From assembly GCA_043813915.1 (NCBI GenBank), contig JBDRKO010000026.1, forward strand, positions 155-64,154: a DNA stretch of 64,000 bases, given 5' to 3'. The translations under genes were made by a program, and so were the position numbers. Below, piece by piece: positions 7,311 to 60,329 of the stretch; the stretch's first letter is position 1, and every line of letters starts with the position of its first letter. The notes under the pieces are model-generated. The model searched no databases. It saw only the letters and a list, made by a program, of their open reading frames with translations, and had not been told where the DNA came from. This DNA is from Candidatus Omnitrophota bacterium (GTDB lineage: Bacteria; Omnitrophota; Gorgyraeia; Tantalellales; Tantalellaceae).

Positions 7311-7953
7311 ATATTTTGAAAAAGAGTACCAGGATTTCAATTCGTCATATAAACAGCCCGGCGAGCTTAAAGATGTTATTCGGAGACTATCCTTCAGGTT
7401 TAATAAGAAGGCCCTGGACGGAAGATTGAACGCGCTGCTTGATCTGGCGGGAGAGAACGTCAAAGGCAAAAGTATGCTTGATGTGGGATGCGGCCCGGGC
7501 TTTTATTCTATTGAGCTGGCGAAAAAAGGCGCTAAGGTAACCGGACTCGATTATTCTAAAGGGATGATAGACGCGGCGCGGCGAAATGCCGCCGAAGCCG
7601 GGGTCGGGGTTGATTTTAAACATGGCGATTATCTGGAGGAAGAGGGACATCCCGCGTTCGATTGTGTTTTCGCTACCGGCGTTATTGAGTATGTCGATCC
7701 GCGGGAGCAGCGGAATTTTATCAGAAAAATGGCGGATGCGTCGAAAGACGCGGTCATCGTGAGTTTTCCTAAAAAGTACATATTACACGCGTTTGCGCGT
7801 AATATATGGCTGAGAATCTTCAAGAAACTTAAGATAAGTTTTTTTTCCGATAAAGACATTGCTAATGTAACACAAGGTCTTAAAGAAACAGACAGGCGTG
7901 ATGTCGGCATTCTATGGGTAATAAAATTTAAGAGAGTTCAAAATGAAAAGTGA
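7294..7953 (+). CDS. Class I SAM-dependent methyltransferase
   Basis: MLDVGCGPGFYSIELAKKGAKVTGLDYS (motif I GxGxG), followed by an acidic motif II. Confidence 0.7.
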   Translation: MVKAREYFEKEYQDFNSSYKQPGELKDVIRRLSFRFNKKALDGRLNALLDLAGENVKGKSMLDVGCGPGFYSIELAKKGAKVTGLDYSKGMIDAARRNAAEAGVGVDFKHGDYLEEEGHPAFDCVFATGVIEYVDPREQRNFIRKMADASKDAVIVSFPKKYILHAFARNIWLRIFKKLKISFFSDKDIANVTQGLKETDRRDVGILWVIKFKRVQNEK

Positions 7954-9361
7954 TATAGTAATAGTCTATCCGCCGGTAGTAATGAAGGGAAATTATGAAA
8001 GTGTTGCTACCGGACATGAGGTGCCGCCGCAACCCCTTATTTATTTAGGTGCCGTGCTCCGTGAGAACAATTACAGATGTTCTCTGCTTGATGCCAACGC
8101 TCTGCATCTCGGTGTGGAAGAGACCATAGCCCGTATCCTGGCATTTTCGCCGAAATACGTAGGCATCTCTGCTCCCACGATGCTGATATCGGCTGCCGGA
8201 GAACTTGCCCGAAGACTGAAGGAAAAAAACGGCGACATTGTGATGATCGTAGGAGGTCCGCACATGAGCGCGGTTCCCGGCATGACCATGGAAAAATATA
8301 AAAGTATTGATGTCGGGGTGATAGGCGAGGGAGAAGTTACTATACTGGAACTATTAAAAGCATTGGATGAAAAGAAACCCCTCGGATCCGTCAAAGGTCT
8401 TATATTCAGAGAAGGAGACAGTATAAGGACTACCGCACCTCGGCCCTACATAGCGGACCTTGATACGATCCCTTTCCCGGCATGGGATATGCTCCCCGAC
8501 ATAATGGCGCATTATCAACAAAGTGCGGCCAGAATAGACAGGCTGCCCAGCATATCAATGGTCACATCGCGCGGATGTCCTTTTCAATGTATCTTTTGCG
8601 CGCGTAATGTATTCGGGAACGTGACCAGATCTCACAGCTCGGATTATCTTATCGGCTTGATCAAACATCTTAAAGAAGAATATAAGATCAAAAACATCAG
8701 TTTCGAAGACGAGAATTTTGTAGTGTACAGGGATAGATTGGTAGAGTTCTGTAATAAGTTCATTGACGATAAAACGGATATAACATGGGATTGTGCTTCC
8801 CATGTTAATAGCGTGACTCCCGAACTGCTGGCTCTTATGAGAAAAGCAGGCTGCTGGCAGATAAATTACGGTATCGAAAGCGGATCCCAGCGTATCCTGG
8901 ATTTTATAAAAAAAGGAAGCACTTTAAAAAGGATCAGAGAGGCGCTTACAATGACACGAAAAGCCGGTATTCTTTCGAAAGGATATTTCATTATAGGCCA
9001 TCCGACCGAAACATTAGAGTCAATTCAGGAAACCATAGATTTTATAAAGAAAATAGACTTGGATATTTTTCAAATGTCCCACATGGTTCCGTTCCCGGGC
9101 ACTGAACTCTATGAAAAAGCCGAACAATATGGGAAATTTGTGAACAATTGGGACGATATGAATATTTGGACACCGCTATTTATCCCCGAAGGATTGACCC
9201 AAGATATGCTTGAAAGAGAGGCAAAAAGGGCTTACAGGGAGTTTTATTTCAGGCCAAGGCCCATATTGAAATACTTTTCACGGATGATGAGACCTTCATC
9301 TTTTTGTAAATATGCGAAAGACGGGTTCAAGATATTTAAATTCTTACTGCGTAAAAGCTGA
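7943..9361 (+). CDS. B12-binding-domain radical SAM enzyme (class B rSAM), paralog 1
   Basis: N-terminal B12-binding-like Rossmann region; radical SAM cluster motif RGCPFQCIFC (CxxxCxxC). Clear paralogy with 55058-56446 (ILELLKALDEKKPLGSVKG vs IVELLTALEEKKPLSSVKG). Confidence 0.7.
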   Translation: MKSDIVIVYPPVVMKGNYESVATGHEVPPQPLIYLGAVLRENNYRCSLLDANALHLGVEETIARILAFSPKYVGISAPTMLISAAGELARRLKEKNGDIVMIVGGPHMSAVPGMTMEKYKSIDVGVIGEGEVTILELLKALDEKKPLGSVKGLIFREGDSIRTTAPRPYIADLDTIPFPAWDMLPDIMAHYQQSAARIDRLPSISMVTSRGCPFQCIFCARNVFGNVTRSHSSDYLIGLIKHLKEEYKIKNISFEDENFVVYRDRLVEFCNKFIDDKTDITWDCASHVNSVTPELLALMRKAGCWQINYGIESGSQRILDFIKKGSTLKRIREALTMTRKAGILSKGYFIIGHPTETLESIQETIDFIKKIDLDIFQMSHMVPFPGTELYEKAEQYGKFVNNWDDMNIWTPLFIPEGLTQDMLEREAKRAYREFYFRPRPILKYFSRMMRPSSFCKYAKDGFKIFKFLLRKS

Positions 9362-11084: not shown

Positions 11085-12362
11085 ATGGGGAGAAAAGAAA
11101 TAAAAGTTTTTAATACAGGGTCAAGCACCGTAGTCGACCGATGCCAGATATGCGATAATCCTGACCTTGAGTCAATATTGTTCTTAGGATACTTGCCGCC
11201 CGTCAATACGATGAATCCTATAGGCGAAAAACCGCACCAGCAGCCCAGCTATCCGGCGCAGCTCTTATACTGTCCGAAGTGCAGGCTTGTCCAGCTAGGT
11301 CTTATTGTCGACGCGAAGATACTTTTTCCTCCGGAATATCCTTATACAAGCAGTACGACAAAGGTTTTAAGGGACAATTTTGCCGAACTATATGCCGAAT
11401 GCAGTTCTTTGCTGAAATTATCCGAAAATGATCTTATCGTAGATATAGGTTCAAATGACGGTAACCTTCTCAGCAACTTCAAGGATCACCACAGGGTGCT
11501 GGGTATAACCCCTGAAGAAATAGGCAAAATCGCTATCGAGCGCGGCATTCCGACCGTTATAGATTATTTTAACCGGGAAACCGTCGAACGTGTCTTAGGT
11601 GAACACGGTCAGGCAAAGGTCGTGACCGCTACCAACGTATTCGCGCATATAGAGAACGTACACGATATAGTCGACGGAATAACAAAACTTCTGCCATCCG
11701 ACGGTGTTTTTATCTCCGAATCGCATTATCTCCTGGCGCTTGATGATACTCTGCAGTATGATACGGTCTACCATGAACACTTGAGATATTATTCCCTGCA
11801 TAGTCTTAAATATCTTTTGGAGATGCACGGTCTTGAGATATTTCACGCGAAACGTATACTCACCCACGGCGGGTCTATACGCGTATATGCCGCGAGGAAA
11901 GGGAAATATCCCGCGGGAACTGCGGTTAAAGAACTTCTGGACGCGGAAAAAGGGAAGGTATTGAGTAAAGAAGATTTCCTCAAGTTTTCGGAACGGGTCG
12001 TGATGTCCAAACTGGGTCTTGCCGGGATCTTGGCCGGTATAAAAAAAGAAGGCGGACGTATAGCGGGTATCAGCGCTCCGTCCCGGGCCAGTACGTTGAT
12101 AAACTACACAGGGCTTGACGACGGTATTATTGATTATGTCCTGGAAATAAAGGGATCGCATAAGATCGGTAAATATATCCCGGGCACGCTTATTCCGGTA
12201 TTCGAAGAATCTAAACTATACGAAGAACAGCCCGAATACGCTCTTATTTTTTCATGGCATATAGCGGATGAGCTTATCCCTAAGATAGCCGCGAAAGGGT
12301 ATAAAGGAAAATTCATTATTCCTCTTCCGGAACCTAAAATAGTGGATAACCCCGCAGGATAG
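11085..12362 (+). CDS. SAM-dependent methyltransferase with N-terminal Zn-ribbon and C-terminal C-methyltransferase-type domain (TylCIII/NovU-like architecture)
   Basis: N-terminal CQICDN...CPKCRL (Cx2C...Cx2C), a central class I MT fold (VDIGSNDGNLL) and a ~120-aa C-terminal extension. The 425-aa size fits sugar C/N-methyltransferases with this tripartite layout. Confidence 0.5.
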   Translation: MGRKEIKVFNTGSSTVVDRCQICDNPDLESILFLGYLPPVNTMNPIGEKPHQQPSYPAQLLYCPKCRLVQLGLIVDAKILFPPEYPYTSSTTKVLRDNFAELYAECSSLLKLSENDLIVDIGSNDGNLLSNFKDHHRVLGITPEEIGKIAIERGIPTVIDYFNRETVERVLGEHGQAKVVTATNVFAHIENVHDIVDGITKLLPSDGVFISESHYLLALDDTLQYDTVYHEHLRYYSLHSLKYLLEMHGLEIFHAKRILTHGGSIRVYAARKGKYPAGTAVKELLDAEKGKVLSKEDFLKFSERVVMSKLGLAGILAGIKKEGGRIAGISAPSRASTLINYTGLDDGIIDYVLEIKGSHKIGKYIPGTLIPVFEESKLYEEQPEYALIFSWHIADELIPKIAAKGYKGKFIIPLPEPKIVDNPAG

Positions 12363-18850: not shown

Positions 18851-21031
18851 ATGAAAAAGATCCTTGTTACGGGCGGCGCCGGATATCTCGGGTCGGTTCT
18901 CTGTCATAAACTTATCGATAAGGGATATTCCATAAGATGTTTTGACCGGCTTTATTTCGGAGATGGGTCCGTCAAGGACCTTTCTTCAACGGGACGTTTT
19001 GAGCTCATTAAAGGAAATATAGTCAACCTTAAGGATTTCCCTGAACTTCTTGACGACATAGATAGTGTGATACATCTGGCGGGCTTGGCTAACGATCCTA
19101 CCGCGGAACTTGATACGGAGCTGACCAGGATAACCAATCAGTATGCGTCGGTAGAACTGGCAAAAGAAGCAAAAAAGAAAGGGATATCCAAATTTATATT
19201 CGCGTCAAGCTGCAGCGTTTACGGAAAAGGCCTTTCGGAAGAGATAACGGAAGAGTCCCCGCTTAATCCCGTCTCGGTGTATGCCGAGTCCAAAGTGCTG
19301 GCAGAACAGGAGATAGCGCTTCTTAAGGACGAAAAGTTCCATCCGGTGTTTCTCCGGCAGGCGACACTTTTCGGCAGATCATACAGGATGCGTTTTGACC
19401 TTGCGATAAACCTCATGGTGGTGCATGCTCTTACCAAAAAGAAGATATTCGTATGGGGCGGCGGCGAACAGTGGCGGCCATTTCTGCACGTCGACGACGC
19501 GGCGGAGGCTTTTTTGGCCTGCCTTGAAGCCGAGACGAAAACGGTTTCAGGAAAAGTTTTCAATGTCGGAGATTCAAAAGTAAATTATAAGATAATCGAC
19601 CTGGCCAATTTTGTTAAGGACAGGATAAAAGGGACGGAGCTGGAAATAGTGCCGGACACCCCGGATAAACGCAGTTACAAGGTGCGTTTTGATAAGATAG
19701 GAAAGAGCCTTGGATGGTATCCGAAGATAAAGGTGGAAGACGGTATAAAAGAGCTCAGCGACTATCTGCTGGAAGGTAAGATAAAAGATTTTGACAGTCC
19801 CGAGTTCTATAATATCAAGACGATAATGAGTTTTATCGAAAAACCGGCGATAGAGGGAGGCGACCCGGTCAGGACCGAATTCCTTCCGTTCTCTCTTCCC
19901 CTGATAGGTAAAGAAGAAGAGGAAGAGGTTCTTGATACATTGAGGTCCGGATGGCTTACCACGGGTCCTAAAACAAAGAAACTGGAAGATGAGTTCAGCG
20001 GGTACCTGGGGGCAAAACATTCCATATGCGTCAGTTCCTGTACGGCCGCTCTTCATCTCGCGCTGGTCGCTTTGGGTATAAAAAAAGGAGACGAGGTCAT
20101 AACCTCGCCCATTACCTGGCCCGCTACCGCGAACGTTATTGTCCATACAGGCGCGGTCCCTGTTTTTGCGGACGTTGAACGCGATACGTTAAATATCGAT
20201 CCCGCCAAAATAGAAAAGAAAATAACAAAAAAGACCAAGGCGATAATCCCGGTACATATGGCAGGCCAGCCCTGTGACATGGATAAGATAAGCAGGATAG
20301 CTAAAAAACACGGTCTGTTCGTGATAGAGGACGCGGCTCACGCGATAGGAGCCGAATATAACGGCAGTAAGATAGGGGTGGTAAGCGACATGACCTGTTT
20401 CAGTTTCTATCCGATAAAGAACATGACCACCATAGAAGGAGGGCTCATAACCACGAACAATGACGGCTGGGCGGAAAATATGCGCGTTAACAGTCTGCAC
20501 GGCATAGATAAGGATGCGTGGAAGAGGTACACAAATACGGAGTTCAAACATCATGAGGTTGTCTATCCGGGGTTCAAATACAATATGAGCGATATTCAGG
20601 CATCCATGGGGCTTGCTCAGCTCAGGAAACTGGACGGATTTATCGGCAGAAGAAAAGAGATCACAAGCATATATAACGACTCGTTCAGGTCTTTTGAAGA
20701 GATAATACTGCCGGTATCAAAAGGGAACATCAAACACGCTCATCATCTTTATGTGATCATTCTCGATACTGACAGACTTAAAGTAGGCAGAGATAAGATC
20801 ATACAAACACTGAACAAAGAGAATATCGGCACGGGGCTCCATTTCAGGTCTTTACATGTGCAGGAGTATTATAAAAAGACCTTTGCGTATAAGCCGGAAG
20901 ACTTGCCCGAAGCGGCGTTCCTGAGCGACAGGATAATATCTCTGCCGCTTTACCCGAAGATGGATCAATATGATGTTGATTCGGTAATAAGGGCCGTCAG
21001 AAAAGCGATCATTTATTATAAAGCGGCGTAA
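18851..21031 (+). CDS. Bifunctional fusion: N-terminal extended SDR epimerase/dehydratase (~330 aa) + C-terminal DegT-family PLP aminotransferase (~390 aa)
   Basis: N-terminus ILVTGGAGYLGSVL...YAESK...RPFLHVDD. C-terminus EEEEVLDTLRSGWLTTGPK...CVSSCTAALHLAL...PxHMAG...CFSFYPxKN (DegT motifs). The SDR half is paralogous to 39037-40449. Confidence 0.65.
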   Translation: MKKILVTGGAGYLGSVLCHKLIDKGYSIRCFDRLYFGDGSVKDLSSTGRFELIKGNIVNLKDFPELLDDIDSVIHLAGLANDPTAELDTELTRITNQYASVELAKEAKKKGISKFIFASSCSVYGKGLSEEITEESPLNPVSVYAESKVLAEQEIALLKDEKFHPVFLRQATLFGRSYRMRFDLAINLMVVHALTKKKIFVWGGGEQWRPFLHVDDAAEAFLACLEAETKTVSGKVFNVGDSKVNYKIIDLANFVKDRIKGTELEIVPDTPDKRSYKVRFDKIGKSLGWYPKIKVEDGIKELSDYLLEGKIKDFDSPEFYNIKTIMSFIEKPAIEGGDPVRTEFLPFSLPLIGKEEEEEVLDTLRSGWLTTGPKTKKLEDEFSGYLGAKHSICVSSCTAALHLALVALGIKKGDEVITSPITWPATANVIVHTGAVPVFADVERDTLNIDPAKIEKKITKKTKAIIPVHMAGQPCDMDKISRIAKKHGLFVIEDAAHAIGAEYNGSKIGVVSDMTCFSFYPIKNMTTIEGGLITTNNDGWAENMRVNSLHGIDKDAWKRYTNTEFKHHEVVYPGFKYNMSDIQASMGLAQLRKLDGFIGRRKEITSIYNDSFRSFEEIILPVSKGNIKHAHHLYVIILDTDRLKVGRDKIIQTLNKENIGTGLHFRSLHVQEYYKKTFAYKPEDLPEAAFLSDRIISLPLYPKMDQYDVDSVIRAVRKAIIYYKAA

Positions 21032-40916: not shown

Positions 40917-40923
40917 TGGTACT

Positions 40924-43001: not shown

Positions 43002-43016
43002 GAGGGAGGAGTAAAA

Positions 43017-47000: not shown

Positions 47001-47001
47001 T

Positions 47002-48662: not shown

Positions 48663-49720
48663 TGGCAAGGACTGTCAGTATAGCCGGAAGGAAGATAGGC
48701 GAGGGACATCCCGTTTTTATAATAGCGGAACTTTCCGCGAATCATCGGCAGAGTTATACGAACGCGGTCAAGCTTATAAAAGCCGCGAAATCTTCCGGCG
48801 CGGATGCCGTGAAACTTCAGACGTATACGCCCGATACCATAACAATAGATGTTGATAACAGGTTTTTCAGGGTGGATCATCCCGAGTGGGGCGGTCAGAC
48901 GCTGTATCAGCTGTATAAAAAAGCGTATACCCCGTGGAAATGGTTCGGGAAATTAAAAAAAGCGGCGGATGACGCGGGGATAATATTTTTTTCAACGGCT
49001 TTTGATAAGACAAGCGTGGATTTTTTGGAAGAACTGGGTGTTCCGGCGCACAAGTTATCCTCTTTTGAACTTGTGGACCTGCCCCTGATCGAATATACCG
49101 CGAAAACAAAAAAACCCCTGATACTTTCAACCGGTATGGCTACGGAAAACGAAATAAAAGAGGCGGTTGATACCGCGAAAAAAGCGGGAGCTAAAGATAT
49201 TATCCTTCTGAAATGCGTCAGCAGCTACCCCGCGGATCCCGCGCAGATGAACCTGAAGATGATCCCTCATCTTGAGAAGACGTTTTGTTTGCCGGTAGGC
49301 CTTTCCGATCATGGGCTGGATATGGCGGTTCCGTCCGCCGCTGTAGCGCTCGGCGCGAAAGTCATAGAACGGCATTTTACTTTATCAAGAAATACGAAGT
49401 CTCCTGACAGCTTTTTTTCTACCGAGCCGGATGAATTGAAAGAACTTATAACTAATATCCGCAGTGTGGAGAAAGCCCTGGGCAAAGTGCGGTACAGTTT
49501 GTCCCGCGAGGAAAAGAAAAGCCGTCTCCACCGCAGGTCGCTTTTCGCGGTAAAAGACATAAAAAAAGGAGAGATATTCACCGGGGAGAACATAAGGTCT
49601 ATAAGGCCGGCATACGGCATTTCTCCTAAATACGAAAAAAAGATGATCGGCAGGAGATCATCTAAAAACATAAAAAAGGGAACGCCGATCAGTTTCGGCC
49701 AGATCGGAAAAAGCAGATGA
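48659..49720 (+). CDS. Nonulosonic acid synthase family (NeuB/PseI/LegI-like) with C-terminal SAF domain
   Basis: RKIGEGHPVFIIAELSANH...GADAVKLQTY (NeuB TIM-barrel N-terminus) and a C-terminal antifreeze-like domain (IKKGEIFTGENIRSIRP); 353 aa. Confidence 0.8.
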   Translation: MMARTVSIAGRKIGEGHPVFIIAELSANHRQSYTNAVKLIKAAKSSGADAVKLQTYTPDTITIDVDNRFFRVDHPEWGGQTLYQLYKKAYTPWKWFGKLKKAADDAGIIFFSTAFDKTSVDFLEELGVPAHKLSSFELVDLPLIEYTAKTKKPLILSTGMATENEIKEAVDTAKKAGAKDIILLKCVSSYPADPAQMNLKMIPHLEKTFCLPVGLSDHGLDMAVPSAAVALGAKVIERHFTLSRNTKSPDSFFSTEPDELKELITNIRSVEKALGKVRYSLSREEKKSRLHRRSLFAVKDIKKGEIFTGENIRSIRPAYGISPKYEKKMIGRRSSKNIKKGTPISFGQIGKSR

Positions 49721-51573
49721 AACTGATAATTGTACCGCCTGAGGTCGATAGTACGGATGATATCAGGAAGATATCGGACGGGGAGAGTTTTATCTTCACG
49801 GCGGATCATTTATTGAAGAAAGAGCTTGTGCGCGGAAAAATAGCGCGTCCGGATAAAGTATTGACCATTAGCGACGTCGCGGATGATAGTGTTTTCGATG
49901 ATGTCAACGATCTGACAAGACGCTATTCCAGAGAGTGGTTCAAAGCGGAAGAGGCGGATGAAATCCTGTCTTTCAGGGGGGTGAACCTGGCCGGACAGCT
50001 TGTAGCCGAAACAAGTTTTTATTTTATAAAAGTGTTGAGGGCGGTATGTATATCGCAGGCTATTCGCGGCTCTTACGGCGGCAAGGCGGAATTTATTCTG
50101 GCCGATGATGAAAGCATCTGGGCAAAAGTGTTCAAATATACGGCCCGGAAGAGAGGTATAGGGTTAGATATAAGAAAGTTCGCTCCCGCCAAAGGTTCGT
50201 TGGACAGCGGGATATTCCCGATCAAGGATATGATCAGAAGATCCGCGGCCAGACTTTACGGTCGGACGCGGCGGAATATTCCCTCAGGCGGTATATTATA
50301 TTCGTGCGCTCCGGGTTATTTTAAGCTGTTCCGGGATATTTCCGCGACAGGGGGGACGTCATATTACTTAAGGCCTGAGTTTTCGCCCCGGACGGGGATC
50401 GAGTTCCGCGGGAAAGAAACGGTCTATCTGACCCCCGAGTGTTTTATTGAGAAAGAGGACAAAACGATATGCCGAAAGTGGCTCAAGAACAGGGATATCC
50501 GGGCGGTGCTGGACTCTCATTTTAAGGACTCGGATTTTTTTGTATATAAAGGAGATAACCTATGGGAGATCATTAAGCATGATCTTTTTCATATGCTGGA
50601 TCAGGCGCTTTTTCGGGGAGCGGTATGGGTTCTCGGTTTTAACAGGATATTAGACAGCCTCAAACCGAGAACTATAATAGTGGAAGAAAATATATGTCCT
50701 TTCAATAAGACCCTTATAGAATGCGCCGACAAAAAAGGTATACCCAGCGTATATCTTCTGCACGGCCTCTTGACATATGATCTTTTTTCAAGCATAGGGT
50801 CGGCTTCTACGGTCGTTGTGCCGGGAACATATACGAAGAAATTCTTAACAGATCATGGAGTGGCAGAAAATATGATCGCGGAAATAGGGCTTCCTTATTA
50901 CGAGAAGAAAATAAGTTCTATCGACAGGACCGGGAGCAGACGAAAGTTTTTCTCAAGGTACGGTCTTGATGACGGAAAAAGGATAGTGATGCTGGCTTCA
51001 CATGATGTTTTCACGGAAAAACGTCCGTATTATACAGGGAACCCGCATACTCCTGAAAATGCCGAAAGAATGATGGAAATAACCTGTGAGGCCGTGCGGG
51101 CTTCAAAAAACACCAGGATGGTGATCAAGATACATCCCATGGACGGTAATCTCCGGTTTATCGTGAATGTGCTGAAACGGATGAAGATGACAGAAGATGT
51201 TCTTATTGTGAAAGACTTCGATGCCATGGAGCTTATCGCTATCAGTGACCTGGTCCTTTGCGGGTGTTCGACCGTTTATCTCGAAGCTTTACTTCTAAAA
51301 GTCCCGGTCCTGGTATTCGATGATGTTGAGAGAGGGTTTCTCCGGAAATTGGGCAGTGAGTTTGTCAGCCTGAAGGATAAAGAGAAAAGCGTAAAAAGTA
51401 TTAACGGTCTTATTGAAGATAAACTGCTTAGAACGGAGCGTTTAAAAAGGCAGGAAGATGAACTTTCGTGGCATTTTGTGGATAAGAATAATGGGTCTCA
51501 GGAAAAGTTCAGGGAGCTTTTAAACAGGATCGCGATAGAAAACGGAGGACGGGTATATGAAAAGAGCGGATAA
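49717..51573 (+). CDS. Large GT-B-fold-like protein with HP motif (TagF/KpsS/bacterial-sialyltransferase-like)
   Basis: 618 aa. C-terminal region VIKIHPMDGN...ISDLVLCGCSTVYLEALLLKVPVLVFDD resembles the HP motif and nucleotide-binding strand of TagF-like or polysialyltransferase-like GT-B enzymes. Confidence 0.35.
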   Translation: MKLIIVPPEVDSTDDIRKISDGESFIFTADHLLKKELVRGKIARPDKVLTISDVADDSVFDDVNDLTRRYSREWFKAEEADEILSFRGVNLAGQLVAETSFYFIKVLRAVCISQAIRGSYGGKAEFILADDESIWAKVFKYTARKRGIGLDIRKFAPAKGSLDSGIFPIKDMIRRSAARLYGRTRRNIPSGGILYSCAPGYFKLFRDISATGGTSYYLRPEFSPRTGIEFRGKETVYLTPECFIEKEDKTICRKWLKNRDIRAVLDSHFKDSDFFVYKGDNLWEIIKHDLFHMLDQALFRGAVWVLGFNRILDSLKPRTIIVEENICPFNKTLIECADKKGIPSVYLLHGLLTYDLFSSIGSASTVVVPGTYTKKFLTDHGVAENMIAEIGLPYYEKKISSIDRTGSRRKFFSRYGLDDGKRIVMLASHDVFTEKRPYYTGNPHTPENAERMMEITCEAVRASKNTRMVIKIHPMDGNLRFIVNVLKRMKMTEDVLIVKDFDAMELIAISDLVLCGCSTVYLEALLLKVPVLVFDDVERGFLRKLGSEFVSLKDKEKSVKSINGLIEDKLLRTERLKRQEDELSWHFVDKNNGSQEKFRELLNRIAIENGGRVYEKSG

Positions 51574-52280: not shown

Positions 52281-53765
52281 ATGAATAAAATAAAAAGCAT
52301 AGGATATGTGGCCGGTTCAAAACTCGCGGCGTTCGTAATGGGCATAACGCGGGGATTTCTTGTGCCCGGATATTTGGGCCCACAACTTTACGGGGTAATA
52401 GGTCTCCTTAAGCTGGTTAAGATAATACTGGGTTTTACGGCGTTCGGTATGGACCAGGCGTATTTCAGACTGTCTCTGGAATACGGCGGCAGTGACCGTG
52501 ATGAAAGCAGGAAAAAGGCGCTTGAGGACAATGTGTTCACATTCCTTTTTTGTTCGGCCCTTATCGGTATGATCCTGACCGTTCTTCTGCCGTTTATCCT
52601 GAAAACGAGTGATGCCGGTCTTCAGAAAATAATGATATTCTGTTTCGCCGTGACCGGTGTGCAGCATTTTTTTCAGTTCACGGGAAATTTTTTCTTTAAG
52701 ACGATGCATATTAAGAAAGAGTTCCGGTTCATATCGCTGATGAACATCGTGCAGCCTTTGATAGCGCTTATTCTTATACTCGCTATGGTGTTCCGATGGA
52801 AGATATACGCGGTGTTTATCGCGGATCTTGTAGCGGTTGCCGCGGTCCAGATATTGTATTTCCGCAATGCGGGGATAATGCCGGAATTAAGGATACACCT
52901 GAGCGAATTCCGGAAGACATTCCGGTATGCTTTACCGTTCTTTATAGCGGGTATATGTTTTTATCTGTTCCGGTTCACGGACAGGACCGTTATAGCTTCT
53001 TTTCTGACGCTCCGGGAACTGGGGCTTTACACATTCGCTATAGGGATAGCGGAGAACACCAGGATGCTGAGCGTCGCTATCGATGAGGTGTTTTCGCCTT
53101 TCATGGTAGAAAAAATAAGCAAAGCGGATAACCTTCGTTCCCTTTCAGGCGAAATAACGTCGTATACGTATACACTGCTTTTTATAACCACAGCCGTTTC
53201 GCTTTTATCGGTCTTTTTCTGTCCGTTCATAAAACTTATATTACCCAAATATGCCGACGCGCTTCTTGTTCTCAAGATACTCCTTATCAATATAATACCG
53301 CGGACCTTTATTCTCTATCAGATACTGCTTTTAAGCTCGCCCAGGGTGAACAGGCAGAACCATATAAATATCGCCATGACCGTATCAGGGATCATTAACG
53401 TTGTTTTGAGCATATTTCTGATCAAACGGGGTTACGGTATAACAGGCGTCGTCGCGGCGACCTTTCTATCTCAGATATTAATGGCCGCGTTCTATCTTAT
53501 AACATCCGGTAAATATTATTTAGCCGGGAAAAAGACCGTATTCTATTTCAAAATATCCGTTACTATGGCGATCATGATCATATATTGTTATCTGCAGAGG
53601 ATGGATGCCGCGGTCACTTTAAAGAACTTCACCCATGACTCCGTCGCGTTTCTCGCGCTGACCGGAGCTCTTGCATTCATTTTTAAAAAAGAAATAACCG
53701 GGATCATCTCGAAATTCAAGGAAAAAATGATTTCAACGGAAAAGAGCGGGGAAGAGGTAACGTAA
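52281..53765 (+). CDS. Wzx-type oligosaccharide flippase (MOP superfamily, polysaccharide biosynthesis protein)
   Basis: 494 aa, about 12-14 TM helices and a typical Wzx-like N-terminus (KSIGYVAGSKLAAFVMGITRGFLVPGYLGPQLYG). Confidence 0.55.
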   Translation: MNKIKSIGYVAGSKLAAFVMGITRGFLVPGYLGPQLYGVIGLLKLVKIILGFTAFGMDQAYFRLSLEYGGSDRDESRKKALEDNVFTFLFCSALIGMILTVLLPFILKTSDAGLQKIMIFCFAVTGVQHFFQFTGNFFFKTMHIKKEFRFISLMNIVQPLIALILILAMVFRWKIYAVFIADLVAVAAVQILYFRNAGIMPELRIHLSEFRKTFRYALPFFIAGICFYLFRFTDRTVIASFLTLRELGLYTFAIGIAENTRMLSVAIDEVFSPFMVEKISKADNLRSLSGEITSYTYTLLFITTAVSLLSVFFCPFIKLILPKYADALLVLKILLINIIPRTFILYQILLLSSPRVNRQNHINIAMTVSGIINVVLSIFLIKRGYGITGVVAATFLSQILMAAFYLITSGKYYLAGKKTVFYFKISVTMAIMIIYCYLQRMDAAVTLKNFTHDSVAFLALTGALAFIFKKEITGIISKFKEKMISTEKSGEEVT

Positions 53766-53766: not shown

Positions 53767-55083
53767 ATGAATGGTAAAGATAAAAAATACGATATAGTGT
53801 TCTGGGCGTATATCGACAGCGTTGTCGACAGGTGCATTCCGCTTATGGTGAAGATGAACAAGCGGGGGTACAGGACGCTTCTCTTTTACCAGAATTATGA
53901 CATGTTCGATAATAATTCCGTTGCCCAGGAGAAGTTGATAAGTAAATACGGACTGGAAGTCGCGACTTATTCCGATCATCTGAAGGTGAATCCGCTTGTC
54001 GGGATACTGACATTTTTCATTAAGAGGATACCGAACAGGTTTGTACGGAATAAACTTCGGGGGATCCGCTTCAGATTCCTTGACAAGGACGTCAATAACG
54101 AGAAATTCATAAGCGGGTTGATAGAGGATCTCGGGCACAAATTGAACGTTTTCGATATATTGGAATTCGGCAAGTATACGAACTTTCCTTACGGCAGTTA
54201 TTACGTGAAGAAATTGTCCGACAAACAGGGGATCAAAAGCATTTCAATGTGCCACGGCGTAGCCGCTCATTATAAGGAACATCGCAAAGCTGACAGAACG
54301 ATAGATTTTAAGACGGTGATAATATGTAATGAAAAGGAAAAAGAATATATCGCGCCCAAATGCACGGAAAGCGATGTGGATATAGTCCCTATAGGTGACC
54401 CTCGTTTTGATTCGTCCTGGAAGCCCGAGGTGAGGTCGGTATTTGCCGACGAGGCCAGAAAGATAGTGCCGGTAGACGATAAGATCAACATACTTTATAT
54501 CTCACCGGGCCTGGAGCATTTTCATCTGACCGATGAAAAGTATAAGGCGCTCAGCGATATGGCATCAATAGCCGCTTCTCTCGGTTATGTCAGGCTTATC
54601 CTGAAACCGCATCCGCGTCACAGATATGAGGACCGCATAATAAAGATAATGAAGAGGAACGGTCTTAAAGATTTTATCATATTGAAGAACGACCCGATGA
54701 TAGCATACGCGGATATCGTAGATTATGTCGTATCGCCCGTTTCCAGCGCCGTTTTTGACATTCTGCCGGAGATGCCGGAAAAGGCGGTCATCTACGATGG
54801 CTTCTCAAAAAAGGAGCGTCTACTTAATATTTTCGACGGACATGTGAACTTCTTTGAGGAAGCCGGAGCCTTAAAGACTTTTATTAAAAACAGCCGCGCA
54901 CTCAGACAGACCGGAAAAGACGGTAATACGCGGGTTTGCAGTAAGGATATAGGAGATTTTTGTAATAAATGGGTGGCTAACGGCGAGGGGCTTGATACCA
55001 TAATAGACCGGTACGCCCGGCTGATAGAGAGCAAAATAAAATACGAGGGGATAGAAAATGAAAGTTCTATTGGTGATCTATGA
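53767..55083 (+). CDS. GT-B-fold-like protein with HP motif (TagF-like glycerophosphotransferase or nonulosonic-acid transferase candidate)
   Basis: 438 aa; LILKPHPRHRY (HP motif) and a preceding YISPGLEHF region; no TM segments. Confidence 0.3.
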   Translation: MNGKDKKYDIVFWAYIDSVVDRCIPLMVKMNKRGYRTLLFYQNYDMFDNNSVAQEKLISKYGLEVATYSDHLKVNPLVGILTFFIKRIPNRFVRNKLRGIRFRFLDKDVNNEKFISGLIEDLGHKLNVFDILEFGKYTNFPYGSYYVKKLSDKQGIKSISMCHGVAAHYKEHRKADRTIDFKTVIICNEKEKEYIAPKCTESDVDIVPIGDPRFDSSWKPEVRSVFADEARKIVPVDDKINILYISPGLEHFHLTDEKYKALSDMASIAASLGYVRLILKPHPRHRYEDRIIKIMKRNGLKDFIILKNDPMIAYADIVDYVVSPVSSAVFDILPEMPEKAVIYDGFSKKERLLNIFDGHVNFFEEAGALKTFIKNSRALRQTGKDGNTRVCSKDIGDFCNKWVANGEGLDTIIDRYARLIESKIKYEGIENESSIGDL

Positions 55084-56446
55084 CAACATCTCGTACATAC
55101 ACTGGTTCCCGCAGGGATTAGCGTATATAGCGGCAGTCCTTCTGAAGGCAGGGCATGAAGTCGAGATATATAGCCAGGATATGCATCACTACACGGAAGA
55201 ACATCTTACGGAATACCTGAACAACAATAAGTTCGATGTGATCGGCATGGGAATAACGGCAGGTTACTGGCAGTACCGGAAGATGCAGAAAATATCCGAT
55301 GCCATAAACAGGTCCGATAACAGGCCGTTCTATATCATGGGTGGTCATGGCCCGACACCGGAACCTGAATTCTATATAAGGAAAACAGGCGCGAACGCTA
55401 TAGTGATGGGCGAAGGCGAGATAACCATCGTTGAGCTTTTAACGGCACTGGAAGAGAAAAAACCGCTTTCCTCCGTTAAGGGGATAGCTTATTCCGAAAA
55501 AGGGGAGGTCAAGGTCAACGAGAGGAACCCTCTTATTAAAGACATCGATACAATGCCGATGCCGGCGTATGAGCTGTTCCCGATGGAGTATTACAGGCTG
55601 ATGAGAAAACCTCATGCTACGAACGAAGATTTTGTTATGTCGGTTATTTCAGGACGGGGATGTTTGTTCAAATGCAATTTCTGTTACCGCATGGACGAAG
55701 GGTTCAGGCCCAGAAGCAGCGAAAGTATCGTCGACGAGGTCATGATGCTCAAGGAAAAATACGGCATAACGTATATTGACTTCTATGATGAACTTTTGAT
55801 GTCGTCTCCGGAAAGGACCATAAAACTGTGCGAGACTTTCATAAAAAGAAAAATGAACATGAAATGGTGCTGCAGCGGCAGGTTGAATCACGCGAAGCCG
55901 GAAGTTCTGAAAATAATGAAACGCGCGGGATGTGTATTCATAAACTACGGGATCGAGTCTATGGATAACGTGGTCCTGAAGAACATGAGAAAGGGGCTGA
56001 CCGATAATATCATCATCAAAGGGATCGAGGCTACGCTTGAGCTCGGCATAAGCCCGGGGCTTAATATGATGTTCGGTAATTTCGGGGACAATAAGGATAC
56101 TTTGAACAAGGCGGTTGATTTTCTGATCAAGTATGATGACGGGGCTCAGGTCAGGACCATACGCCCGGTAACACCTTATCCCGGCACACCGCTTTATGAA
56201 TACGCTCTTGAAAAAGGGATGATAAAGGATTGCGAAGATTTTTACGAAAACAAACACACTAACTCGGACCTCTTATCGGTCAATTTTACAGATATGAGCG
56301 ATGATGATTTCTACCGGTGTTTGATGGACGCGAACAGAAGGCTGCTTACGAATTATCACAATAAACAGATGACTTCCATGCTTAAACAGACGGAGGATCT
56401 TTATGTTAAGCGGGACGCGAGTTTTCGCGGTTTCCGCCAGAGCTGA
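55058..56446 (+). CDS. B12-binding-domain radical SAM enzyme, paralog 3
   Basis: GRGCLFKCNFC (CxxxCxxC); the N-terminal domain is homologous to 7943-9361. Confidence 0.7.
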   Translation: MKVLLVIYDNISYIHWFPQGLAYIAAVLLKAGHEVEIYSQDMHHYTEEHLTEYLNNNKFDVIGMGITAGYWQYRKMQKISDAINRSDNRPFYIMGGHGPTPEPEFYIRKTGANAIVMGEGEITIVELLTALEEKKPLSSVKGIAYSEKGEVKVNERNPLIKDIDTMPMPAYELFPMEYYRLMRKPHATNEDFVMSVISGRGCLFKCNFCYRMDEGFRPRSSESIVDEVMMLKEKYGITYIDFYDELLMSSPERTIKLCETFIKRKMNMKWCCSGRLNHAKPEVLKIMKRAGCVFINYGIESMDNVVLKNMRKGLTDNIIIKGIEATLELGISPGLNMMFGNFGDNKDTLNKAVDFLIKYDDGAQVRTIRPVTPYPGTPLYEYALEKGMIKDCEDFYENKHTNSDLLSVNFTDMSDDDFYRCLMDANRRLLTNYHNKQMTSMLKQTEDLYVKRDASFRGFRQS

Positions 56447-56630: not shown

Positions 56631-57317
56631 ATGTCAAAAGTTACGGCTGTAATACCCGTCAGGGGAGGGAGCGAGAGATTAAAGAACAAGAATCTGCGGT
56701 TAATAGGAGGGGAAAGTCTCCTGTGCCGGAAGATAAGGATACTGAAAGAGTGCGGGAACGTAGAACGTATAATAGTCAATTCGGATTCTGATGTAATGCT
56801 GGACACCGCGCGCAGCCGGGGAGTAGAAGCGGTGAAAAGGGATCCGGCTTTTGCTTCTTCCGGAGCTCCCATGAACGAGGCAATACACCACGTCCTGGCC
56901 AATACGCCGGGTGAGCATATTATATGGGCGCAGGTCACAAGTCCGCTGCTTTCAAGCGCAAGGATAGACGAGTTCATAGGTATGTATTTTAACGGTCTGA
57001 AAAAAGGATACGACAGTCTCGCGACCTACAAGAACGTGAGAGAATACCTGTGGGACGATAACGGGCCCGTTAATTATGAGAAGGGCGGACATCCCAGGAG
57101 TCAGGACCTCAAGATATACAAGGCATTGACCTTTACCGTGGCTATAATAGGGAAACAGCTGGGAATGAAAAGAAAATATTATATAGGAGATAAACCTTAT
57201 TTTGTAGAAGTTACTGATGAAGAGGCCGTGGATATTGATAATGAAATGGACCTGTACATAGCGAATGCTTTGCTGGCGAGAGAGTCTTTGCTGGATATCC
57301 ATCTCAGTGAGGCATAG
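56631..57317 (+). CDS. Acylneuraminate cytidylyltransferase family (NeuA/PseF/LegF-like CMP-nonulosonic acid synthetase)
   Basis: TAVIPVRGGSERLKNKNLRLIGGESLL matches the (A/V)IPARGGSKGIxxKN signature; 228 aa. Confidence 0.7.
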   Translation: MSKVTAVIPVRGGSERLKNKNLRLIGGESLLCRKIRILKECGNVERIIVNSDSDVMLDTARSRGVEAVKRDPAFASSGAPMNEAIHHVLANTPGEHIIWAQVTSPLLSSARIDEFIGMYFNGLKKGYDSLATYKNVREYLWDDNGPVNYEKGGHPRSQDLKIYKALTFTVAIIGKQLGMKRKYYIGDKPYFVEVTDEEAVDIDNEMDLYIANALLARESLLDIHLSEA

Positions 57318-57348
57318 CGCGGACAGTAAGACCAAAGGAGAAAATATC

Positions 57349-58254
57349 ATGAAGACCATAGTTTTCGGTGGATCGGGTTTTTTAGGAAGTTATTTGGCGG
57401 AAGCCTTAGTAGCCGCGGGATACGAGGTGACAATATTCGATCTGAAAGGATCAGGGCTGGATAACGTCAATATGGTAATAGGGGATATAACGGATGCCCC
57501 TAAGGTCAGAGAGGCGATAACAGGTGCGGATATAGTATATAACCTGGCCGCTATCGCCGATATTGATGAATGCGTGAAAAATCCCGTAGAAGCGGTTAAA
57601 TATAACATATTGGGCAATACCGTCATACTGAATGAATGCGCGAAAGCAAAAAAACCTATCAAAAGATTCGTCTACGCCAGTTCGGTATACGTTTATTCGT
57701 CTTCAGGAGGGTTCTACAGATCTACGAAACAGGCGAGTGAATCCATAATAGAGAACTATAATAAATACTACGGCATACCTTACACGATCGTCCGGTACGG
57801 CACGCCGTACGGTCCGATGGCCGATGAGAAGAACAGCGTGTATCGTTTTATCAAAGACGCGTGCGAGAAAGGCAAGATGCAGTATGTCGGTGTCGGCACC
57901 GAGGTTCGCGAATATATCCACGCGAGCGACGCGGCGCGTCTCAGTGTTAAGATACTTGATGCCGAATACGAGAACCAGAGGGTCATGCTTACGGGTCATC
58001 ATCCCGTCAAGGTGAGCGATCTCTTGATGATGATAAACGAGATACTCGGAGGAAAGATAGGGATAGAATATCTGGGCAAGAAAAAAGACGTTCCGGAAAG
58101 GCACTATACCATAACCCCGTATTCGTATAACCCCAGGATAGCGAAAAAACTCGTCGATCATTATTACCTTGATCTCGGACAGGGGCTGCTGGACTGTGTG
58201 GAAAAATTCAAATCAAAAGAAGTCGGCAAACCGTTTACGGAGATGAAAAAGTGA
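57349..58254 (+). CDS. NAD-dependent epimerase/dehydratase (extended SDR)
   Basis: MKTIVFGGSGFLGSYL and YRSTK (YxxxK). Start at 57349 with SD AAAGGAG 8 nt upstream; the ORF-track start 57265 is rejected. Confidence 0.6.
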   Translation: MKTIVFGGSGFLGSYLAEALVAAGYEVTIFDLKGSGLDNVNMVIGDITDAPKVREAITGADIVYNLAAIADIDECVKNPVEAVKYNILGNTVILNECAKAKKPIKRFVYASSVYVYSSSGGFYRSTKQASESIIENYNKYYGIPYTIVRYGTPYGPMADEKNSVYRFIKDACEKGKMQYVGVGTEVREYIHASDAARLSVKILDAEYENQRVMLTGHHPVKVSDLLMMINEILGGKIGIEYLGKKKDVPERHYTITPYSYNPRIAKKLVDHYYLDLGQGLLDCVEKFKSKEVGKPFTEMKK

Positions 58255-60329
58255 CACTGAAAAGCAAAGGACATAAAAGATATAAGGAAGGACAGTGTGT
58301 GATCTATCTGGCTGACCTGGTCCATAATTACGCCGCCAAGGGTCCGCATACTTTTCCTCTCAATATAGGCTATATCTGCGCCTATACGAAGAAACTCTAC
58401 GGCGATAAAGTGGGTATAAGGCTCTTTAAATATCCGTCGGACCTGATCGAAGCCGTAAAGCGTCAAACGCCGCATGTAGTGGGATTGGGTAATTATACGT
58501 GGAACCTTGAAATAAATAACAAGATCAGCCGCTGGATCAAATCGGTCTCGCCCGGAACCCTTGTTGTGTACGGCGGGCCCGATTATCCCGCGGACCCGGA
58601 AGGAGCCCCGGAATATCTCCGCCGGAGGCCTGACACGGATATTTATGTCATGCTGCAGGGCGAAAGAGGGTTCGCTAACGTTATTGGGAGGTTTTTAGAG
58701 TACGGTTCCATAGAAGGAGTAAGATCTTCCGCGGTGGAGAATTGCGCGTTTTATGACAGGGACGCGGATAAGGTGATCACGGCGGATACTTATAACTATA
58801 TAGATGACATGGACGAGATACCGTCCCCTTATTTAACGGGGGTAATGGATGATTTTTTCGACACTTATCTTATCCCGGTCATTGAGACTAACCGGGGATG
58901 TCCTTATTCCTGCACATTTTGCGCCTGGGGTAATTCCAGCCAGCGGAAGATCTTCCGGTTCCCGCTTGAACGGGTAAAACAGGAAGTGGAATATATCGCC
59001 GAAAATATAAAGAACGCGAGCCTGCTGACGGTAGGAGACGCGAATTTCGGTATACTCGAAAGGGATCTTGAGATAGCCGAACATATAAAGAGCGTCAAGT
59101 GCCGGTACGGTTATCCGCGTCACATGGCCATAGGTTGGGCTAAAACGATAGACAGAATAATAAAAATGTCGGATGTAGTGGGCGATATGGTAAGCGTAAG
59201 CTGTTCTCTCCAGACGCTGGATGCCGAGGTTATGAAGAACGTGAAGAGGACCAATATCAGTTTTGATGAATTTAAAAGAGCACAGAGATATTTCAATTCA
59301 AAAGGTGTCTCAACGCACACCGAAATAATACTTGCCCTTCCGGGTGAAACAAGAGAAACGCATATGAAGGGGCTTAAAGACCTGTTTGATTACGGGACGG
59401 CGTCAATGCAGTGCTATAACCTGAGGATGCTGGGCGGAAGCCGGCTGAATGCCGCCAAGAACAGGAAGAAATACGGATTGAAGACAAAATACAGGCTTGT
59501 GGACGGTTGTTTCGGAAAATATGAAGATATAATATCGATCGAATCCGAAGAAATGGTCGTGGGTACCGATACCATGACCATGGACGATATCCTGTATTTC
59601 CGGCCTATACATTTTTTGATACAGTTTTTCTGGAATTATAAATACTACAAAGAACTCCTGCATTTTCTCGGAAGTAAGGACATTAACGCGGTAGATTTTA
59701 TCGTCAAAGTGATAGCGAACATGGGTTCCGCTTCTCCTGCCGTAAAAGGGATATTCGATGATTTCATGAAAGAGGCGCGTGACGAATGGTTCGATACCGA
59801 GGAAGAACTTTTCGAGCATTATTCCGGACCTGAAAATTTTAAGATGATATGTGAAGGCGGTTTTGGTAAACTTAACTTTAAGTATACGTATCGTTTTCTG
59901 CTCGAATGTAAGAATGAGTGCGATGAATATGTGTTCGCTACAGCCGCGGAGCTCTTGGATGAACGGAAGAAACTGGATGAGATCTCAAAACAGCAGATGG
60001 AAGACCTTCTCCGGTATATAAAGAACAGGTTTATTGACCTGGCGACGGTTTCCGGCAGTCCGCGGTATAGAACATCCCTGGACTTTAAATATGATATTTT
60101 TGGATGGAAGAACCGGGCATGTATAGGGCCCATTCCTGCCGCGGCAGGCTCCGGGGTGAAGCTGAGCTTTATACTGCCGAACGAACAGGCTACGGCTCTG
60201 AGGAAGCTTTACAAGCAGTTCAAGTCCGATAATATCAACCAGACTTTAAGGAAGATGGTAGAATGTATCATGAACAAGGACGAGTTGTTCTATAAAGTCG
60301 ATTACGCGTCAAACCTGGAGGGGAAATGA
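58251..60329 (+). CDS. B12-binding-domain radical SAM enzyme, paralog 4 (692 aa, long C-terminal extension)
   Basis: NRGCPYSCTFC (CxxxCxxC) after a ~200-aa N-terminal B12-binding-like domain; ~250 extra C-terminal residues. Confidence 0.65.
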   Translation: MTLKSKGHKRYKEGQCVIYLADLVHNYAAKGPHTFPLNIGYICAYTKKLYGDKVGIRLFKYPSDLIEAVKRQTPHVVGLGNYTWNLEINNKISRWIKSVSPGTLVVYGGPDYPADPEGAPEYLRRRPDTDIYVMLQGERGFANVIGRFLEYGSIEGVRSSAVENCAFYDRDADKVITADTYNYIDDMDEIPSPYLTGVMDDFFDTYLIPVIETNRGCPYSCTFCAWGNSSQRKIFRFPLERVKQEVEYIAENIKNASLLTVGDANFGILERDLEIAEHIKSVKCRYGYPRHMAIGWAKTIDRIIKMSDVVGDMVSVSCSLQTLDAEVMKNVKRTNISFDEFKRAQRYFNSKGVSTHTEIILALPGETRETHMKGLKDLFDYGTASMQCYNLRMLGGSRLNAAKNRKKYGLKTKYRLVDGCFGKYEDIISIESEEMVVGTDTMTMDDILYFRPIHFLIQFFWNYKYYKELLHFLGSKDINAVDFIVKVIANMGSASPAVKGIFDDFMKEARDEWFDTEEELFEHYSGPENFKMICEGGFGKLNFKYTYRFLLECKNECDEYVFATAAELLDERKKLDEISKQQMEDLLRYIKNRFIDLATVSGSPRYRTSLDFKYDIFGWKNRACIGPIPAAAGSGVKLSFILPNEQATALRKLYKQFKSDNINQTLRKMVECIMNKDELFYKVDYASNLEGK

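Follow-up and report, generated by a model that had tools for sequence, protein, structure and literature searches.

B12-type radical SAM enzymes in a probable cell-surface glycan locus of a Candidatus Omnitrophota bacterium, and a conserved family among them found beside nonulosonic acid genes

Radical SAM (S-adenosylmethionine) enzymes that depend on B12 are known from antibiotics, cofactors, lipids and peptides, and to our knowledge none has been characterised in cell-surface glycan assembly. Fom3, GenK, GenD1 and MoeK5 carry out C-methylation of sugar substrates or of substrates activated with cytidine monophosphate (CMP), HpnJ and BchE are non-methylating, and AprD4 is a sugar diol dehydratase. 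Nonulosonic acids decorate flagellins, pili, S-layers and lipopolysaccharides and shape immune and phage recognition; we know of no radical SAM enzyme in the described legionaminic and pseudaminic acid pathways. Here we describe a 64,000-nucleotide stretch of a Candidatus Omnitrophota genome (GenBank assembly GCA_043813915.1, contig JBDRKO010000026.1, positions 155 to 64,154; hereafter the window) and its radical SAM genes at 7943, 32624, 55058 and 58251, labelled rS1 to rS4. The original prediction, made from the DNA alone, took them for four paralogous B12-binding enzymes of one sugar locus. All coordinates are positions within the window, unless another locus is named.

In a 2026 review (PMC12931638) the words 'sugar' and 'polysaccharide' and any 'glyc-' term are absent. 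Fom3, GenK, GenD1 and MoeK5 are listed there as methyltransferases, HpnJ and BchE are placed among "other or unknown transformations", and AprD4 and ArsL are described as binding no cobalamin.

The window is probably one long cell-surface glycan locus built from several conserved modules, with one radical SAM tailoring enzyme per module. Each of these B12-type enzymes would then act on a different building block. The most interesting result is rS3, which belongs to a very highly conserved, uncharacterised family beside nonulosonic acid pathways.

The rS3 family and nonulosonic acid loci

Relatives of rS3 with 66-72% identity occur in Nitrospirota, Desulfobacterota, Planctomycetota, Eremiobacterota and others, and a scan of one genome per species found a relative encoded in 416 species genomes. 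Among the carriers are archaea (Methanolobus, Promethearchaeota, Woesearchaeota), candidate-phyla-radiation bacteria (Parcubacteria, Levyibacteriota), Bacillota, Actinomycetota and Campylobacterales. Two carriers are cultured, Geomonas silvestris Red330 and Desulfoscipio geothermicus DSM 3669.

The genomic context was analysed in 83 loci, i.e. the best 80 of the 416 genomes (61-70% identical to rS3) and three from exact-protein look-ups. Of the 54 loci that span 15 kb or more, 46 have a NeuB homologue no further than 10 kb from the rS3 orthologue (median distance 4.2 kb), 40 have a DegT aminotransferase and 36 a CTP_transf_3 homologue. The corresponding counts for 18 control loci of the rS1 family are one, one and zero. 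Fisher's test gives p = 1e-9 for NeuB and a range from 1e-9 to 4e-7 over the three families, which ties the rS3 family to nonulosonic acid loci.

De novo clustering of all open reading frames in the 83 loci recovers the whole Campylobacter-type legionaminic acid set around rS3. The commonest neighbour is a CMP-sugar synthetase (57 loci), and the cytidylyltransferase directly after rS3 in the window (56631-57317) belongs to this cluster. The other clusters are an aminotransferase (49 loci), NeuB (49), a PtmE-like protein with CBS and nucleotidyltransferase domains (45), a short-chain dehydrogenase/reductase (SDR; 43), NeuC (42), a NeuD/PglD acetyltransferase (27), a HisH-like protein (23), the WbuX amidotransferase (21) and a HisF-like protein (18). 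Representatives of the clusters score over the NCBIfam cut-offs of LegB (479.5 against 475), LegC (512 against 420), NeuB (469.9 against 399.65), NeuC (496.7 against 235.9), NeuD (222.6 against 160.8) and WbuX. The genes in this region of Desulfoscipio geothermicus DSM 3669 run from a Maf-like flagellin glycosyltransferase through the rS3 orthologue, a 336-aa gene, LegB, LegC, LegH, LegG, LegI and the PtmE-like gene to LegF. The window itself carries genes over the equivalog cut-offs for PseC (508.1 against 423.5) and PseI (459.3 against 340.25), and no PseB, PseF, PseG or PseH over its NCBIfam cut-off.

Most often, an rS3 orthologue directly adjoins the CMP-sugar synthetase (20 loci) or an unannotated protein of about 632 aa (10 loci). 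Members of the latter family are present in 16 loci (L020 2301-4196, L086 7909-9810, L060 11408-13309 and 13 more), in 10 of them directly downstream of rS3. The family has no Pfam match, and one member shows a faint match to the LIC12162 transferase family; it may be a transferase for the modified sugar. A 618-aa protein of the window was considered as a member and rejected, as the two are not related.

The median pairwise identity among 82 rS3 orthologues of bacteria and archaea is 68.7%, compared with 30-45% for the pathway enzymes in the same loci, which had been picked by similarity to rS3. Either the rS3 orthologues are under unusually strong constraint or they move between loci on their own.

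According to our model, rS3 and the adjoining cytidylyltransferase would act on a 5,7-diamino-tetradeoxy-nonulosonic acid of the pseudaminic or legionaminic type, its precursor or its CMP form, the acid and its CMP form being the candidate substrates we put forward. C-methylation would be the first choice of chemistry by analogy with Fom3, which we take to methylate a CMP-activated substrate and to be a model for an enzyme next to a cytidylyltransferase. A wider reading is attractive but falls somewhat short of probable: the rS3 family would be an unrecognised, extremely conserved tailoring enzyme of legionaminic/pseudaminic-type nonulosonic acids that makes radical-derived (e.g. C-methylated), chemically undescribed sialic-acid-like sugars. 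Its carriers number over 400 species, from mostly anaerobic bacteria to candidate-phyla-radiation bacteria and archaea. In this reading, TokK-like methylases of the rS4 type would at times place further carbons on that sugar or on its N-acyl group.

In the literature we found no paper that links radical SAM enzymes with nonulosonic acid synthesis. Co-mentions of radical SAM with legionaminic or pseudaminic acid concern unrelated topics, judged by title, and co-mentions of B12, legionaminic acid and methyltransferase are likewise unrelated. The literature on anammox S-layers was considered and set aside, since it describes methylated sugars and holds no radical SAM link. If the wider reading is true, a conserved radical enzyme in the nonulosonic acid pathway of hundreds of anaerobes implies a widespread sialic-acid-like sugar that is missing from structural catalogues. 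The two cultured carriers make this directly testable.

The four enzymes and their modules

The four open reading frames are present as predicted. In each, the Pfam domain PF04055 (Radical_SAM) exceeds its gathering cut-off of 29.5 bits (51-93 bits), and a single CxxxCxxC motif lies 200-270 residues from the N-terminus (residues 212, 272, 202 and 217 in rS1 to rS4). The B12-binding domain PF02310 exceeds its cut-off of 32.1 bits in rS1 (69.7), rS3 (63.5) and rS4 (34.4); the PF04055 score of rS1 is 85 bits and that of rS2 is 92.7 bits. For rS2, an AlphaFold model built from 32 homologues (mean pLDDT 91) supports a B12-type N-terminal domain, whose Rossmann-like sheet is broken by a helical insert at residues 46-143. 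In a Foldseek search with this model TsrM comes first (E 6e-16), and MgmA (9CCB), OxsB, AprD4 and TokK are among the best matches. The predicted combination of a B12-binding-like domain and a cluster motif thus holds by Pfam in three, and in rS2, where the domain is putative, it leans on the model; none has a Pfam match to DUF4070, the non-B12 domain that the prediction had named as the alternative. All four share with TokK a GG(P/H) motif followed 23-31 residues later by GEGE/GERG, and the DxHxxG histidine-ligand motif is present in none of the four. Cobalamin binding by the four, and methyl transfer via methylcobalamin, are putative; the fold of AprD4 and ArsL is similar, and these two bind no cobalamin (PMC12931638).

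Pairwise BLASTP identity is 31.6% over 392 residues between rS1 and rS3 and 24-26% for the remaining pairs. Because mutual identity is only 24-32% while each enzyme has relatives with 51-76% identity in other phyla, the four are, by sequence comparison, distantly related and not close or recent paralogues, and "paralogous" overstates their relationship. The homology of rS1 and rS3 stands, and the alignment of about 390 residues is not restricted to the N-terminal halves, where the prediction had placed it. At least two B12-type radical SAM genes are found in 23 of 82 rS3-type loci and 15 of 33 rS1-type loci. Such loci are common in these lineages, so the count of four is less remarkable than the conserved rS3 family. 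A 21-kb glycan locus of Thermodesulfovibrionales (L004, GCA_049302185.1, 5103-17078) contains four B12-binding radical SAM genes, including an rS3 orthologue, and in addition a SPASM radical SAM gene; genes of this radical SAM-SPASM type are present in 10 rS3 loci.

The window has about 58 genes, nearly all in one direction, and a GC content of 42-48%. Identical proteins are found on contigs labelled Candidatus Omnitrophica/Omnitrophota, e.g. GCA_018817765.1. The features are listed below, all on the (+) strand; GT2 denotes family 2 glycosyltransferases and GT-C the C-fold glycosyltransferases.

496-28220: left part, with GT2/GT-C genes, sugar-nucleotide enzymes and rS1; holds five small GT2 of the polyprenyl-phosphate sugar synthase type, five GT-C membrane transferases (three PMT_2, one YfhO, one GT87-like), a UDP-GlcNAc 2-epimerase, SDR enzymes, a UDP-sugar dehydrogenase, an SDR-aminotransferase fusion, GFO oxidoreductases and a hexapeptide N-acetyltransferase
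4366-5151: GT2, in an overlapping run leading into the methyltransferase and rS1
5120-6427: GT87-like membrane GT-C
6417-7310: Polysacc_deac_1 deacetylase
7294-7953: class I SAM methyltransferase (Methyltransf_11/12/23/25/31), 11-nt overlap with the start of rS1
7943-9361: rS1, 472 aa, CPFQCIFC at residue 212
11085-12362: TylCIII-like C-methyltransferase (Methyltransf_13 and Methyltransf_14; PF08421, PF13489, PF08484)
28288-38601: middle part, module B, the rS2 cassette
first in the module: M29/NicX-like protein, module B
29333-30901: AMP-ligase, module B
between the AMP-ligase and the methyltransferase: 259-aa protein of no assigned function, module B
31674-32363: class I methyltransferase, module B
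32377-32634: carrier protein, 85 aa, with DS motif, module B
32624-34231: rS2, 535 aa, CPYMCSFC at residue 272
34221-35030: AAC(3)-like N-acyltransferase, module B
last in the module: DUF4910 protein, 2-hydroxyacid dehydrogenase, cyclase and HAD hydrolase, module B
39037-62837: right part, with nonulosonic acid block, flippase, rS3, rS4 and tail genes
39037-51573: nonulosonic acid block, beginning with CBS-SDR fusion and cupin
40924-42090: PseC-type aminotransferase, followed by aldo-keto reductase and SDR
43793-44563: CTP_transf_3 cytidylyltransferase, followed by GNAT, SDR, methyltransferase, ATP-grasp and HAD proteins
48659-49720: PseI-type synthase
last in the block: 618-aa BFO_1060-like transferase
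52281-53765: polysaccharide flippase
ending at 55083: 438-aa protein with no family match, overlapping the start of rS3
55058-56446: rS3, 462 aa, CLFKCNFC at residue 202
56631-57317: CTP_transf_3 cytidylyltransferase, CMP-nonulosonate synthetase type, directly after rS3
57265-58254: SDR epimerase/dehydratase, overlapping the start of rS4
58251-60329: rS4, 692 aa, CPYSCTFC at residue 217
60326-61276: GT2, downstream of rS4
61251-62030 and 62043-62837: two class I methyltransferases, downstream of rS4

The class B architecture of the original prediction is supported by the domains, and its glycan context by this map, in which many class I methyltransferases accompany GT2 and GT-C (PMT_2, YfhO) genes, a flippase, PseC/PseI and CMP-sugar synthetases. 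GT2, methyltransferase or acyl carrier protein genes were said to lie beside each of the four enzymes, which fails for rS3, flanked by the 438-aa gene and the cytidylyltransferase. Our count of SAM methyltransferase genes is seven, with the TylCIII-like one among them and one a weak call, and not the eight (TylCIII-like plus seven others) announced before. No riboswitch, including those for cobalamin, no other Rfam RNA and no tRNA was found in the window.

With five small GT2 and five GT-C genes grouped at 496-28220, the locus may hold several Gtr/Arn-like branches of periplasmic glycosylation. Two fusions are unusual: a 726-aa protein joining an SDR dehydratase/epimerase to a DegT aminotransferase (18851-21031), and a 470-aa protein joining a CBS pair to an SDR (39037-40449), which also occurs beside rS3 orthologues in L005 and L006. 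A membrane protein of the lysylphosphatidylglycerol-synthase type is encoded just past the window end (L003 19213-20178); the same type follows the hpnI-hpnJ-hpnK operon of Mycetohabitans (L171 7129-8190), which may be coincidence.

The rS1 module is conserved and consists of a sugar deacetylase, a class I methyltransferase and GT2/GT-C genes. Orthologues of rS1 with 62-76% identity are found in Planctomycetota, Elusimicrobia and Omnitrophota. The locus of the Elusimicrobia orthologue (L167) retains the deacetylase (48% identity), the 2-epimerase (46%) and the SDR (49%), with a formyltransferase, a GT2 and a second B12-type radical SAM gene alongside. On a second orthologue contig (P0150), a GT2, a GT87-like gene and PMT_2 genes occur together with a Polysacc_deac_1-like gene, a formyltransferase and a TylCIII-like methyltransferase. 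Fusion to a class I methyltransferase is seen in five homologues with 45-48% identity (P0196, P0204, P0207, P0211, P0226). These fusions are single proteins of about 698 aa with the methyltransferase N-terminal, and one is located at L168 3694-5790. A metagenome scan with the rS1 alignment yielded mostly distant homologues (31-48%) on short contigs, where a small GT2 is the sole recurrent neighbour (19 of 83 loci). As these lack the module neighbours, they are unsuited to testing the rS1 module and were used as the control for the NeuB association. In a plasmid collection no rS1 or rS3 orthologue was found, every match being below 32% identity; the annotated HpnJ and BchE sequences used for comparison come from this collection. 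For the methyltransferase at 7294, the best profiles are BchM and CpaM (corrinoid-protein-associated); both matches are sub-threshold and are treated as generic class I similarity.

In our model the amino sugar would be put on polyprenyl phosphate by the small GT2 and freed by the deacetylase, and rS1 and the class I methyltransferase would then act together on the freed amino sugar. By analogy, the substrate of rS1 may thus be a deacetylated, possibly lipid-linked amino sugar, on which rS1 might catalyse either a methylation or a rearrangement.

The rS2 family is small, with 13 clusters above 50% identity (51-65%), including marine Gammaproteobacteria, and then a fall to 36%. Eight genes of module B recur around the rS2 orthologue of a marine gammaproteobacterial metagenome-assembled genome (L169), and four in a second locus (L170). 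In L169 the methyltransferase is 57%, the N-acyltransferase 48% and the carrier protein 47% identical to those of the window, followed by the DUF4910 protein (40%), the 259-aa protein (38%), the ligase (29%) and the cyclase (25%). The partial cassette of L170 has a phosphopantetheinyl transferase and an HMGL-like enzyme in addition. The cassette is thus conserved, and the AMP-ligase of the window is fatty-acyl-ligase-like. The carrier-protein and ligase genes next to rS2 suggest that it acts on an acyl group and not on a sugar carbon. The ligase would load an acyl group on the adjacent carrier protein, rS2 would modify this carrier-bound group, and the AAC(3)-like N-acyltransferase would then transfer it to an amino sugar; this order of steps is the one we propose. 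In L169 (5371-20656) the rS2 cassette adjoins homologues of the GT2 at 4366, the GT87-like gene at 5120, the 2-epimerase and an SDR. This arrangement hints that the rS1 and rS2 modules of the window may feed the same amino sugar, by deacetylation and then re-acylation. The two conserved modules point to unexplored amino-sugar and N-acyl chemistry.

rS4 matches TokK (E 3.8e-50) and CysS (E 1.5e-47) over about 400 residues. Trp84 of rS4 aligns with TokK Trp76, which lies below the corrin. Trp226 aligns with TokK Trp215, a hydrophobic residue between the cobalamin and the cluster (PMC12931638). The KedN5 model (NF033712) gives 212 bits, and its subfamily cut-off of 700 is not reached. The rS4 family is large, with 1606 clusters at E<=1e-30, mostly of 670-700 aa and typically about 680; the nearest relative is 56% identical and the next 41-43%. 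rS4-like proteins of 678-689 aa with 28-40% identity lie within nonulosonic acid loci by rS3 orthologues in three genomes, of Geobacteraceae (L082), Omnitrophota (L060) and Parcubacteria (L063). By sequence, rS4 is clearly of the TokK/ThnK/CysS/KedN5 kind and the only one of the four with good homology support for C-methylation; it would be a cobalamin-dependent C-methyltransferase of the TokK/CysS type, with one or more methyl groups added to an sp3 carbon.

Methylation or other radical chemistry

rS1 and rS3 are generic members of the superfamily, and their scores with methylases do not exceed those with the non-methylating HpnJ, BchE and AprD4. The top NCBIfam profiles are HpnJ (212.8 bits) and BchE (205.6) for rS1, and BchE (134.3), HpnJ (132) and a ladderane-lipid model (131) for rS3. 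AprD4 is the best sequence match with a solved structure for both (E 1.4e-24 and 2.6e-19), in each case over the radical SAM half only. Searches of the solved structures with the N-terminal domain only are weak for rS1 (TokK, E 1.3e-5) and give E 0.44 for rS3; the N-terminal domains of both align with those of the cobalamin-binding OxsB, MgmA/QCMT, CysS, TokK and TsrM. The AlphaFold model of rS3 (pLDDT 86) has its lowest Foldseek E-value with TsrM (2.6e-23, TM-score 0.67), and the fold comparison does not separate cobalamin enzymes from AprD4. The methylases MgmA/QCMT, PhpK, TokK and TsrM score comparably for rS1 and rS3, so methylation by these two is not refuted; every score is far under the family cut-offs.

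Three other explanations have to be weighed. It is conceivable, and to us rather doubtful, that rS1, rS3 or both use radical chemistry to rearrange, dehydrate or cyclise a sugar and not to methylate it, be it an AprD4-like 1,2-diol dehydration to a deoxy sugar or an HpnJ/OxsB-like contraction to a carbocyclic or contracted sugar. The matches to AprD4, which is of near-equal length and has the top TM-score for the rS3 model, and to the HpnJ and BchE profiles speak for this, as does the GT2-deacetylase-radical SAM set of rS1, which mirrors hpnI-hpnK-hpnJ. However, the AprD4 match stops at the radical SAM half while the N-terminal domains resemble cobalamin-binding enzymes, rS1 is only 29% identical to each of the PGAP-annotated HpnJ and BchE, less than to rS3, the scores are far under the family cut-offs, and a methyltransferase accompanies rS1, as a fusion or as a separate partner. 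Nor are legionaminic and pseudaminic acids known to have a vicinal diol of the kind found in the AprD4 substrate. The original prediction leaned the other way, with all four as cobalamin-dependent C-methyltransferases of sugar carbons that, together with the class I methyltransferases, give an exceptionally methylated glycan, which we consider unlikely in this full form. Its case draws on rS4 being TokK/CysS-like, on the MgmA/QCMT, PhpK, TsrM and RiPP (ribosomally synthesised, post-translationally modified peptide) C-methyltransferase profiles that all match rS1 to rS3, on the seven class I or TylCIII-like methyltransferase genes, and on most characterised B12-dependent radical SAM enzymes being methyltransferases (PMC12931638). 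Against it, rS1 and rS3 score highest with the HpnJ/BchE profiles and the AprD4 structure, and the carrier protein and ligase of rS2 point to an acyl substrate. The predicted C-methylation therefore stands for rS4 by homology and has no such support in rS1 and rS3, and since the latter are no closer to methylases, a heavily C-methylated glycan is plausible but unproven, with partial support from rS4. An affinity with non-methylating enzymes, which the prediction had named as speaking against it, is seen in part, in the best profiles and structure match of rS1 and rS3.

It is very improbable that the locus as a whole, or its middle part, is a cluster for a secondary metabolite (an aminoglycoside-like or acylated sugar antibiotic) with GenK- or AprD4-type radical SAM enzymes, and not for a cell-surface glycan. 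The AAC(3)-like N-acyltransferase, the TylCIII-like C-methyltransferase, the carrier protein with AMP-ligase and the similarity to AprD4 would fit such a cluster, but the window has a Wzx-type flippase, three PMT_2, one YfhO, one GT87-like and five small GT2 genes, PseC/PseI and two CMP-sugar synthetases, no 2-deoxy-scyllo-inosose synthase, polyketide synthase or nonribosomal peptide synthetase was found in it, and the rS3 context of Desulfoscipio holds a Maf-type flagellin glycosyltransferase. Several observations weigh against the modular glycan locus with a nonulosonic acid-modifying rS3 that we prefer. No curated NCBIfam family cut-off is reached by any of the four (the HpnR model gives 73, 59, 89 and 28 bits for rS1 to rS4, against a cut-off of 650), and the PF02310 score of rS2, 25.3 bits, is under the 32.1 cut-off. 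The rS1 module is backed by two close orthologue contexts, and rS1 homologues at 31-48% identity have no deacetylase or methyltransferase neighbours. The rS3 loci are the best-scoring 80 of 416 by similarity to rS3, which inflates the apparent conservation, and the tie of rS4 to nonulosonic acid loci is based on three loci. The rS3 model superposes on AprD4 (TM-score 0.74/0.75) at least as well as on TsrM, and methylation is thus well supported only for rS4. Within the modular glycan locus, methylation is the most likely chemistry overall, with rearrangement or dehydration possible for rS1 and rS3.

Comparison with described systems

Among the described enzymes, TokK, ThnK, CysS and KedN5 (PDB 7KDX, 9N1B) resemble rS4 in their length of about 680 aa and their C-terminal extension, and rS4 keeps the tryptophans of TokK as W84 (W76, below the corrin) and W226 (W215, after the cluster motif). 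Unlike this group, rS4 lies in a glycan/nonulosonic acid locus and not in a carbapenem, cystobactamid or enediyne cluster. By their PDB titles, the crystals of TokK and CysS contain pantetheinylated substrates, whereas no carrier protein adjoins rS4.

The HpnI-HpnK-HpnJ system, which converts hopanoid glucosamine to the cyclitol ether, is the nearest parallel to the rS1 module. rS1 matches the HpnJ profile over its full length, and the hpnI-hpnJ-hpnK operon follows the same logic of glycosyltransferase, B12-type radical SAM enzyme and deacetylase. Unlike HpnJ, rS1 stays well below the TIGR03471 cut-off of 577.6 bits; the deacetylase of the window is Polysacc_deac_1 and not of the HpnK type, and the rS1 module has an extra, inserted class I methyltransferase, which some homologues carry as a fusion. 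No hopanoid genes are present in the window. Likewise, rS1 and rS3 are below the cut-off for BchE (TIGR02026, 481 bits), and the window holds no bacteriochlorophyll genes. AprD4 (PDB 6FD2), the apramycin 1,2-diol dehydratase, acts on an amino sugar and has the same size as rS1 and rS3, but its model NF033070 gives 96.3 and 82.6 bits for these two, against a cut-off of 500.

Fom3, GenK, GenD1 and MoeK5 are set beside rS3 by description, i.e. as analogues in function alone and not by sequence, for an enzyme that possibly acts on a CMP-activated substrate or on an sp3 carbon of a sugar. For the pathways around rS3, PseC and PseI of the pseudaminic acid pathway are matched by the window's own genes, and the Campylobacter-type legionaminic acid set (LegB, LegC, LegH, LegG, LegI, LegF and PtmE) is matched by the neighbours of rS3 orthologues.

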